Positions 14,451 to 16,070 of a stretch of DNA of 64,000 nucleotides are shown here, piece after piece. How positions within the stretch are numbered: the first letter of the stretch is position 1; each line of letters starts with the position of its first letter. A model generated the notes under the pieces. It was given only the letters and a program-made list of their open reading frames with translations. It did not search any database and was not told where the DNA came from. The stretch is from NCBI RefSeq assembly GCF_033153115.1, contig NW_026889758.1, forward strand, positions 4,588,001-4,652,000, given 5' to 3'. Made by a program: the position numbers and the translations under genes. Source of the stretch: Saccostrea echinata. Taxonomy: Eukaryota.

Positions 14451-16070
14451 ATGGAAGAAAATCTGTGGGATGTTAATTTTGTCCCTGACTATGATCCTTC
14501 ATCTGGGAGCCAGTCAGAAGAATGGATAACCCTGGATGAGGTGATGTCTGACACCAGCATCTCAGGAGATACACAGGATGCGAACAGGGAGGGGCAGTCG
14601 CCTACAGCGTCTTCCAAAGAAGATACCAGGACAGTAGTACTTGTGGCTTTATGCTCTGGTAGTACTGGTCCACGAGCCGGGAAGTATAGCTGCCCTATCT
14701 GTGGTACCAAGCTCAGTGGACATGTGAAACGACATGTTTTGCGCACTCATTTGCCATGGTTTTGGGTTGGGACACTTGCATGCTGGGAGTGTCGCCAATT
14801 AGAGGGATCAACACTTAGTCAGGCTGTCAAGCACACCCTTGCCCACAAGGGTCAACAGAGGTCATTTGATGACGAGAACCTCCATGAGTGGTGCCAGCTT
14901 TTTAATGGGTCCCTTCACTTATTAAGAGAATGGCTTGGGCTTGACAGCTTGGAGTGTTTGCGCCAGTTTGCTTCATCGAGCCTTCATGAAAATGTAGTGG
15001 GAGAATTTAATATGCAAGAGACCCAGCTGATGACATTCTACGCCACTCACTACAGTGAACACAAAGTCGTCCAATTTAAACTGAAGCCATTGAACCATGT
15101 AGCATGTTTTCTGCACTGGCAGGCTGTTGGTACCTTACTTAAGGGCTTGAGTATTGAACAGCAGGAAGTGTTCAGGCAGCACCAACAGCGGCTTTTGGCG
15201 AATGGGATGACCATAGATAGACCCTTCAATATTACAGGGAACCCCGTCATGGCCAGAATTGTTGATAGTCATTTCCATCTCGATCAAATCCTGCGCAGGA
15301 CCAATTTCAAGACCTGGTTGGAACTAGAGCAGCAATTAGGTGGAAGGGTTCAAGTAGAACATGCTGTGGCTAATTATGTCTTTCCCCGCCAATGGGAGTC
15401 TTGGCAGGCACACATATTAGATGCTGAAAACATTTCTGTGTCCTTTGGTATCCACCCCCATGTTGTTGACCTGGCAGAGCAGTGCCTTGACAGGTTTATG
15501 GAATTGGTAACACATCAGCGTTGTGTAGCCACTGGGGAGGTTGGCATCGATCTCACCACCAATTGCAGATGCAACCCCTGTGTGAGGCCAGAGCAATGCA
15601 GGAAACGTTTGTTGAGGCTCCAGCAGGACTTCCTAGCAGATGCCCTAAATATGGCAAGAGATCTGGGTAAGCCGGTCATTCTGCACTGCAGGGACGATGG
15701 ATCAGGTGAGGCAGCTAAACACACCCTGGCCATTATCCGCATGATGGACATGACTCACCATGCCTTTCATAGGCACTGCTTCACAGGTTCGGTGGAGGAG
15801 CTACACCAGTGGGAGATGGAATTGCCTGCAGTGAAATTTGGCGTCACTATGAGGTCAACTCAGGACCCGAATCTTGTGGCCAGGATCCCAGTTGAGCGCC
15901 TCTTGTTGGAGACGGATGCTCCATATTTACTGCCAGCCCCTGGTTGCAAGATGAATCATCCCTGGAACCTAGCATCTCTTGCTGCACAAGTCGCCTCTAT
16001 CCGCAACACACCAGTGTCATTTATCCTGGAGATATGCAATAACAACGCCAGGCAGTTCTATCGATTGTAA
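14451..16070 (+). CDS. ORF3 of Gypsy-1: acidic N-terminus, C2H2-like zinc fingers and a TatD-family nuclease
   Basis: 539-aa intact ORF inside the LTRs. CPICx9HVLRTH and CWECx12HTLAH fingers. TatD motifs DSHFH, FGIHPH, GEVGID, ILHCR, HCFTG, LLETDAPY, NNARQFY. Confidence 0.92.
   Translation: MEENLWDVNFVPDYDPSSGSQSEEWITLDEVMSDTSISGDTQDANREGQSPTASSKEDTRTVVLVALCSGSTGPRAGKYSCPICGTKLSGHVKRHVLRTHLPWFWVGTLACWECRQLEGSTLSQAVKHTLAHKGQQRSFDDENLHEWCQLFNGSLHLLREWLGLDSLECLRQFASSSLHENVVGEFNMQETQLMTFYATHYSEHKVVQFKLKPLNHVACFLHWQAVGTLLKGLSIEQQEVFRQHQQRLLANGMTIDRPFNITGNPVMARIVDSHFHLDQILRRTNFKTWLELEQQLGGRVQVEHAVANYVFPRQWESWQAHILDAENISVSFGIHPHVVDLAEQCLDRFMELVTHQRCVATGEVGIDLTTNCRCNPCVRPEQCRKRLLRLQQDFLADALNMARDLGKPVILHCRDDGSGEAAKHTLAIIRMMDMTHHAFHRHCFTGSVEELHQWEMELPAVKFGVTMRSTQDPNLVARIPVERLLLETDAPYLLPAPGCKMNHPWNLASLAAQVASIRNTPVSFILEICNNNARQFYRL

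Follow-up and report, generated by a model that had tools for sequence, protein, structure and literature searches.

A TatD-family gene in the env position of a Gypsy retrotransposon lineage of the oyster Saccostrea echinata

Introduction

Why would a Gypsy retrotransposon of an oyster carry a TatD-type nuclease gene where related elements may carry an envelope gene? We address this question for an element in a 64,000-nucleotide stretch of the Saccostrea echinata genome (contig NW_026889758.1, positions 4,588,001 to 4,652,000), here called the window, in which a sequence-only reading had recognised a TatD protein encoded between the integrase and the 3' LTR.

The substrates of bacterial TatD, TATDN1 and TATDN3 are DNA or AP sites. 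Human TATDN2, as described in the accessible part of PMC10711561, is an Mg-dependent RNase that acts on hairpins and R-loops and requires E593 and E705, with minimal action on plain RNA:DNA duplexes, little on DNA and very weak AP activity, and it loses R-loop binding when the N-terminal part is removed. In medaka, tatdn2 is expressed in germ cells, where it acts and limits R-loops (PMC12709183, in the part available).

Results

A Ty3/Gypsy element with a third open reading frame

The window contains an LTR-bounded element of 8.8 kb (Table 1). The domain order gag, protease, reverse transcriptase, RNase H and integrase, together with TG..CA LTRs, a primer binding site, a polypurine tract that abuts the 3' LTR and a target-site duplication within the 4-6 nt range, places it in Ty3/Gypsy by the features tested, with no clade within Gypsy named; the Gypsy clades (C-clade, MolGy, CsRN1 and others) are defined by RT/RNase H in the consulted part of PMC6238403, in which the terms "ORF" and "nuclease" had no occurrences as searched. 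The candidate Troyka, with CG..CG termini and a 3-nt duplication (PMC12440569, in the part seen), was ruled out by the TG..CA termini and the 4-nt duplication of the window element. The primer binding site is a 15-nt match to a genomic tRNA-Ser(AGA) plus CCA, for which two genes are present in the genome, and priming by tRNA-Ser is common among env-carrying Ty3/gypsy elements according to the accessible text of PMC13524379. The ATAT duplication of the window copy lies in an AT-rich flank and is weak evidence when taken alone; 4-nt duplications were readable at 11 of the 13 LTR-paired relatives, the window copy counted.

The sequence-only reading had described an intact intronless ORF of 539 aa between integrase and polypurine tract, inside LTRs flanked by target-site duplications, and this was borne out by a single open frame. 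The window copy itself is decayed, since its pol coding sequence is spread across three frames and the RNase H region contains two in-frame stop codons; gag and ORF3 are still open. The N-terminal helix-hairpin-helix of Gag was seen in at least two families (window 8494-8620, E 2e-5; L095:375-2270, E 2e-8).

A second, unrelated Gypsy copy lies on the minus strand of the window at about 20778-27216, with terminal repeats of 122 nt that are 98% alike and an integrase at 21432-22346; it has no room for an ORF3 and served as the outgroup in the pol tree. About 500 nt past the 3' LTR, a short frame at 17042-17140 (ATG TCG GAG TGT CGA) looks by eye like a first exon, presumably of a universal-stress-protein gene.

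Table 1. Coordinates of the Gypsy element and of the parts of ORF3 in the window.
Feature	Position	Strand	Remarks
Left target-site duplication ATAT	7757..7760	.	AT-rich context
5' LTR, 154 nt, TG..CA	7761..7914	+	2 differences vs 3' LTR
Primer binding site, complementary to tRNA-Ser(AGA)	7916..7930	+	
gag, open, N-terminal helix-hairpin-helix motif	8494..10323	+	HHH_3 E 2e-5 (below cut-off); Retrotrans_gag E 5e-3
pol piece 1: aspartyl protease	10296..10889	+	
pol piece 2: reverse transcriptase, other frame, ends at stop	10837..12069	+	RVT_1 E 4e-30
RNase H region with in-frame stops	12070..12362	+	three-frame translation; domain recognised by eye
pol piece 3: integrase	12363..14300	+	Integrase_H2C2 E 4e-20, rve E 1e-11
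T-rich spacer with candidate splice acceptors for ORF3 message (inferred)	14301..14450	+	
ORF3, 539 aa, intact	14451..16070	+	
ORF3 acidic leader, predicted disordered (aa 1-75)	14451..14675	+	pLDDT under 50; pI 4.05
ORF3 unnamed putative zinc-finger/helical module (aa 77-255)	14679..15215	+	C81-C84-H95-H100, C111-C114-H128, HW motif; pLDDT 94.5
ORF3 TatD domain (aa 268-539)	15252..16067	+	H274, H276, E363, H412, H442, E487, D489
Polypurine tract	16410..16423	+	
3' LTR	16424..16577	+	
Right target-site duplication ATAT	16578..16581	.	

The ORF3 protein belongs to the TatD family

The proposed profile search identified PF01026 as the sole Pfam match in ORF3, covering residues 271-538 and profile positions 1-253 of 253 (E 2.4e-44, 152 bits against a cut-off of 27). 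All of the canonical TatD motifs that had been listed were found (DSHFH 272, GEVGID 362, HCR 412, HCF 442, ETDAPY 487), along with GIHPH at 333. The predicted fold is confident from residue 74 onward (mean pLDDT 83.7), and the model superposes on YcfH, TatD and TATDN1/3 (Foldseek E 4e-13 to YcfH, TM 0.81 on target). By profile, predicted fold and the residues tested, ORF3 is a member of the TatD family.

The metal and catalytic residue pattern HxH, E, H, H, ExD is complete. In the alignment, residues E363, E487 and D489 lie in the motifs that hold E91, E201 and D203 of E. coli TatD; PMC10711561 equates these three with E593, E705 and D707 of TATDN2, on which its RNase activity depends. The invariant columns of 31 aligned ORF3 proteins include C84, H95, H100, P102, D272, H274, E363, H412, H442 and E487, and all six of the ligands H274, H276, E363, H412, H442 and D489 are kept in 83 of 96 family proteins, these being the TatD domains, out of 102, with every key column. 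The residue pattern makes it likely that the TatD domain of ORF3 is catalytically active.

Two other identities were rejected. An errantivirus-type membrane glycoprotein is not encoded: none of the 31 ORF3 proteins reaches a hydropathy of 1.9 (window maximum 1.22 over 19 aa), the window ORF3 has neither a signal peptide-like nor a transmembrane stretch and no furin-like RxK/RR site, and its predicted fold is that of a soluble enzyme. A DEDDy (RNase D-like) exonuclease was rejected on the PF01026 match and the TatD fold.

ORF3 is spread over many families and co-diverges with pol

Searches of the own genome returned at least 75 matches to ORF3 and at least 67 to PF01026, numbers that are lower bounds and not copy numbers. 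We read the flanks of 42 ORF3-type loci, the window included, of which 38 lie on the same strand as, and directly 3' of, gag/pol remains; these comprise 27 loci with TatD or TatD pieces, 6 with a TatD lacking the metal ligands and 5 with an SGNH-type domain. The remaining four (C80, C33:23.09 Mb, C20 and C77) do not show this arrangement. LTR pairs are 96-100% alike at 13 ORF3-type loci.

Between families, identity is 24-36% for ORF3 and 40-65% for integrase. The suggested comparison of RT and TatD trees, made with one copy per family, supports co-divergence: 7 of 9 splits are common to the ORF3 and pol trees for 12 families, and 6 of 7 for the ten TatD-bearing families. The correlation of distances is weak (0.37, p 0.017 for the 12 families; 0.22, p 0.15 for the TatD families), for which decay of some pol rows is the probable cause; 2 of 32 rows were left out of the larger pol tree for low cover. 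A single copy nearly identical to a host TATDN had been named as evidence against the proposal; we found many families, with about 30% identity to the host TATDN2. ORF3 is almost certainly a stable heritable accessory gene of a Gypsy lineage, in the env position.

Some internally deleted copies (L044, L046, L101-L102; C46b, C9b, C33d) keep gag and ORF3, with LTRs that are 97-99% alike, and in C33d the deletion joins gag, protease and ORF3 into one frame of 1537 aa.

Purifying selection on ORF3

Ratios of dN/dS were obtained from Nei-Gojobori counts, for which pairs with a common reference are not independent (the window pairs share one copy). A ratio near 1 would have spoken against a retained gene; the values are mostly 0.2-0.4 and well below 1 in most diverged pairs. 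For the window against C54, C16, C5, C36 and C50, ORF3 gave 0.36, 0.21, 0.34, 0.32 and 0.32, with all intervals below 1, and integrase gave 0.26, 0.26, 0.27, 0.39 and 0.69, so that the interval lies below 1 in five of six window pairs and the ORF3 values are similar to those of integrase. The sixth pair, window-C14, gave 0.72 (0.28-2.75), the pattern to be expected if copies decay once they have inserted. The TatD part alone gave 0.35 (0.24-0.55) in the most diverged pair.

The C13-type pairs gave 0.39 and 0.43, with 0.06-0.10 where dS is near saturation, and the C33a pairs gave 0.56 and 0.67 (intervals that include 1), 0.34 and 0.31. The C46a-C49 pair gave 0.80, again with an interval that includes 1, and the ratio does not differ from 1 in the near-identical pairs (window-C14, C46a-C49 and two of the C33a pairs). 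The families with a ligand-less TatD gave 0.16-0.35, one further pair being saturated, and the SGNH families 0.15-0.18.

A conserved N-terminal module with probably exchangeable cargo

Residues 77-255 form a second conserved domain, separate from TatD, that the sequence-only reading had not noticed. On its own the module has a confidently predicted fold (pLDDT 94.5), and we read it as a putative zinc finger from the Cys/His spacing. It matched no Pfam family, no structure by Foldseek at E 0.001, a best VIA hit of Z 2.6 and Atlas entries that were all under 0.9, which is not proof of a new fold. A profile built from 12 modules recovered 768 clusters, defined at 50% identity, of which 271 reach E 1e-10.

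We scanned for domains 102 new module proteins of at least 300 aa, taken from the best 150 of the 768 clusters. TatD was found in 69, ankyrin repeats in 5, a B-box in 2 and an EF hand in 1, with no family in the remaining 25; local profiles showed TatD pieces in 7 and an SGNH part in 2 of the latter. NADAR stands alongside TatD in 2 of the 102. Among proteins P0064, P0065, P0069, P0072, P0074, P0082, P0090, P0199 and P0136, the module is repeated 2-5 times in large ankyrin-repeat or B-box proteins and occurs once in a Mytilus gene model that carries EF hands.

Sister Gypsy families (L095:6472-7647, L094:1107-2117, L093, L092, L096) have the same module followed by an SGNH/GDSL-type domain, putatively identified in the Saccostrea genome by a sub-threshold Pfam match (E 2e-4) and by block motifs typical of SGNH enzymes. 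In the pol trees, the root of which depends on a single distant outgroup, the SGNH families fall between two TatD groups (support 86-97) whose TatDs form one clade, and for this reason the simplest reading is that SGNH replaced TatD. Other sister families combine the module with a TatD that lacks the metal ligands; these ORF3s are still under selection and have young LTRs. What stays constant in ORF3 is its N-terminal module and not the nuclease. The ligand-less TatD that stays selected, and the replacement by SGNH in two families, show that TatD catalysis is not essential to the whole lineage and that the nuclease is dispensable in some branches. The module is probably a targeting part with a replaceable enzymatic cargo.

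Further domains were seen in individual families. Ligand-less TatD families have a PHD finger at the integrase C-terminus (L111:3795-6332, E 1e-9), and one TatD-bearing family has a Tpt1/KptA RNA 2'-phosphotransferase between integrase and ORF3 (L049:5319-6149, C33, E 3e-44). At C77 (L103:5868-9200), a stand-alone intronless frame of 1111 aa contains two modules and a ligand-less TatD, with no pol within 20 kb; it is 53% identical over its full length to Ostrea edulis XP_056014015, and is likely a domesticated ORF3.

Relationship to TATDN2

A TatD tree of 49 rows, none of them TATDN1, was inferred with IQ-TREE under LG+G4 without a mixture model; it includes 30 element rows hand-picked from about 110 to span a quick tree. 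All 30 element TatDs group together (99/98), and their sister group (99/93) consists of 7 TATDN2-type rows, namely one unnamed protein and TATDN2 of vertebrates, shrimp and oyster; the joint clade has support of 100/100. The window TatD is 29-31% identical to the two exon-split TATDN2-like genes that the host retains beside the element ORF3s and 20% identical to the host TATDN3-like gene; overall, ORF3 and TATDN2 are 26-31% identical. Forcing the element TatDs together with the host TATDN2-like pair cost 21 log-likelihood units and was not rejected (p-AU 0.076). The tree indicates that the capture of TatD is old, and capture from the oyster's own TATDN2 line is compatible with the AU test. A transposon origin of TATDN2, suggested by the nesting of TATDN2 within the element clade in the quick tree, was dropped since the careful tree did not recover it.

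Two tandem intronless host genes of 273-282 aa at C56 (L098) have neither a module nor an adjacent pol; we take them to be TATDN3-like from their motifs.

Occurrence in other genomes and in gene annotations

The expectation that such elements account for gene models in bivalves held: in the annotations of Saccostrea, Crassostrea, Ostrea and Mytilus, element ORFs appear as ordinary genes labelled TatD-like or uncharacterized. The closest named protein to ORF3 is from Saccostrea cucullata (91%). In a Mytilus model, P0025, an integrase zinc-binding domain is fused to TatD, the only link to pol seen outside the Saccostrea genome, and a search for longer fused forms returned one protein. Scans of metagenome and viral contigs gave 80 and 18 loci, respectively, with 24-35% identity over the TatD part only; these loci were left out of the analysis. 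An ORF3-type protein, P0141, is annotated as the TatD of a Sedimenticola MAG and is probably host DNA in that bin. Many intronless "TatD-like" gene models of oysters and mussels, and at least one model from a bacterial MAG, are probably retrotransposon-derived.

Expression

A splice-acceptor rule, set post hoc, was satisfied within 25 nt of the ORF3 ATG in 3 of 5 families, the window copy not among them. Contigs from four sequencing runs guessed to be RNA contain short pieces only of the window element; for the C46a family they cover more, with no sense-strand joint into ORF3 at a cover too thin to decide. We are inclined to think that ORF3 is translated from a separate spliced message, as is env. 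At L038:2509-2938, GT..AG joints antisense to the C46a ORF3 occur in contigs of three runs guessed to be RNA, two of them with a common acceptor near 2698, and a spliced antisense RNA over the C46a TatD region is likely.

Discussion

Comparison with known systems

We found no description of a TatD protein in a retrotransposon in the literature searched, with Repbase, GyDB, Dfam, supplements and subscription journals outside the search; such mentions of TatD as turned up were unrelated synteny notes. The view that env or chromodomain-type genes are the usual extra ORFs of Gypsy elements overlooks the enzymatic ORF3s of rotifer LTR elements, among them a 3'-5' exonuclease. The closest precedent is provided by the bdelloid rotifer elements Juno and Vesta, with a DEDDy exonuclease or GDSL esterase as ORF3 (PMC5408684, in the part consulted, where "TatD" does not occur in the main text). 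As far as described there, these elements and the oyster lineage share a non-env enzymatic ORF3 after pol, cargoes of the same kinds (a 3'-5' nuclease and an SGNH/GDSL hydrolase) and intact catalytic residues. The oyster nuclease is a predicted TatD TIM barrel, whereas that of Juno and Vesta is an RNase H-fold DEDDy enzyme; the oyster cargo is fused to a common zinc-finger module, unlike in the rotifer elements; and the oyster ORF3 co-diverges with pol under purifying selection, whereas repeated acquisitions and no significant within-genome departure from neutrality were reported for Juno and Vesta (PMC5408684, in the same part).

Errantiviruses and other env-carrying Ty3/gypsy elements likewise have a third ORF between integrase and 3' LTR (PMC13524379, as far as available). 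A captured nucleic-acid processing domain, NADAR, is also borne by Ectocarpus Gypsy elements and Crassostrea Tx1 LINEs, there in Pol or ORF1 and here on two ORF3 relatives (PMC12477816, the accessible part of which does not mention TatD). Animal TATDN2 resembles ORF3 in its sister position, its catalytic acidic residues and a long N-terminal extension (PMC10711561 and PMC12709183, in the parts seen); the N-terminus of TATDN2 is wholly disordered, whereas that of ORF3 contains a folded zinc-finger/helical module, and ORF3 is intronless and mobile.

What ORF3 may do for the element

Our preferred reading, advanced tentatively, is that ORF3 works as a tethered nuclease on RNA, its sites of action being R-loops or structured transcripts of the element itself. 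In favour of this reading, human TATDN2 degrades the RNA of R-loops and hairpins and depends on its N-terminal part for binding, medaka tatdn2 acts in germ cells, and the module persists when the cargo changes. The zinc-binding module would bring ORF3 to its target, the TatD domain would trim RNA at these sites, and trimming would favour expression and copying of the element in the germ line. That the substrate is the element's own RNA or R-loops is possible, and we hold it with a little more reserve, since the substrate is not readable from homology: TATDN1, TATDN3 and bacterial TatD use DNA or AP sites, and identity to TATDN2 is only 26-31%. The trimming of plain RNA:DNA hybrids is less likely because TATDN2 is weak on such duplexes and the element has its own RNase H.

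ORF3 could instead be a DNA clean-up enzyme. As a 3'-5' exonuclease or AP endonuclease it would mend or clear element cDNA that is damaged or in surplus, and would thereby protect cDNA from host marking or hide it from cytosolic DNA sensing. The best matches among solved structures, bacterial TatD/YcfH and human TATDN1/3, point this way, as do the other accessory domains of the lineage (Tpt1/KptA, NADAR and the helix-hairpin-helix of Gag), which suggest nucleic-acid damage chemistry. We nevertheless regard this as rather doubtful: the structure matches are biased, as no TATDN2 structure was among the search results, and TATDN2, the nearest cellular relative, acts little on DNA and only very weakly on AP sites (PMC10711561). 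The exchange of cargo behind a constant module raises another alternative, that selection maintains mainly the module, which would bind as an adaptor or serve as a decoy when the host silences the element, with TatD adding nucleic-acid binding and catalysis being secondary. The module alone is constant, with TatD, ligand-less TatD or SGNH behind it; in the window-C50 pair its dN/dS is lower than that of TatD (0.20 against 0.35); ligand-less ORF3s are still selected; the module recurs in the ankyrin/B-box proteins; and gag plus ORF3 is what the internally deleted copies retain. The six ligands, kept intact in the large majority of family proteins across 25-40% identity, are hard to explain in this way without catalysis or metal-dependent binding, and an adaptor role as the main selected function is in our judgement unlikely.

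Two readings place less weight on the element. If ORF3 were kept mainly for the benefit of the host, in germ-line R-loop or DNA repair, the elements would act as carriers; the stand-alone C77 gene with its Ostrea edulis counterpart would fit, as would one Crassostrea family in a 153-member cluster, the listed members of which are mostly sequencing-run contigs of 1.4-3.1 kb. Inserted copies decay neutrally, however, as in the window-C14 pair, and selection therefore works on the lineage as it replicates, not on copies in residence, so that we consider a host benefit very unlikely. Lastly, ORF3 might be a passenger that brings no benefit, retrocopied from a host TATDN gene in the recent past, which would agree with its lack of introns and with a GC3 above that of pol (0.52 vs 0.41). 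This reading is already contradicted by the low identity to the host TATDN2-like and TATDN3-like genes, the many families, the co-divergence with pol and the purifying selection, and we give it almost no credence.

Significance

Judged by the literature searched, TatD is an enzyme class new to the accessory genes of retroelements, and the analysis has brought to light an unnamed, confidently folding module with hundreds of divergent members. A wider scenario, which we offer as a speculation and consider doubtful as a whole, is that an ancient and wide-ranging Gypsy lineage acquired its TATDN2-type nuclease early in animal evolution and joined it to a zinc-finger adaptor of undescribed structure, into which different enzymes (TatD, pseudo-TatD, SGNH, NADAR) could be plugged in turn, that the element erases the R-loops or RNA signals of germ-line silencing, and that hosts took the adaptor back into their own genes. 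With an intact TATDN2-related enzyme under selection on a mobile element, it becomes possible to test whether transposons manage their own R-loops or cDNA damage.
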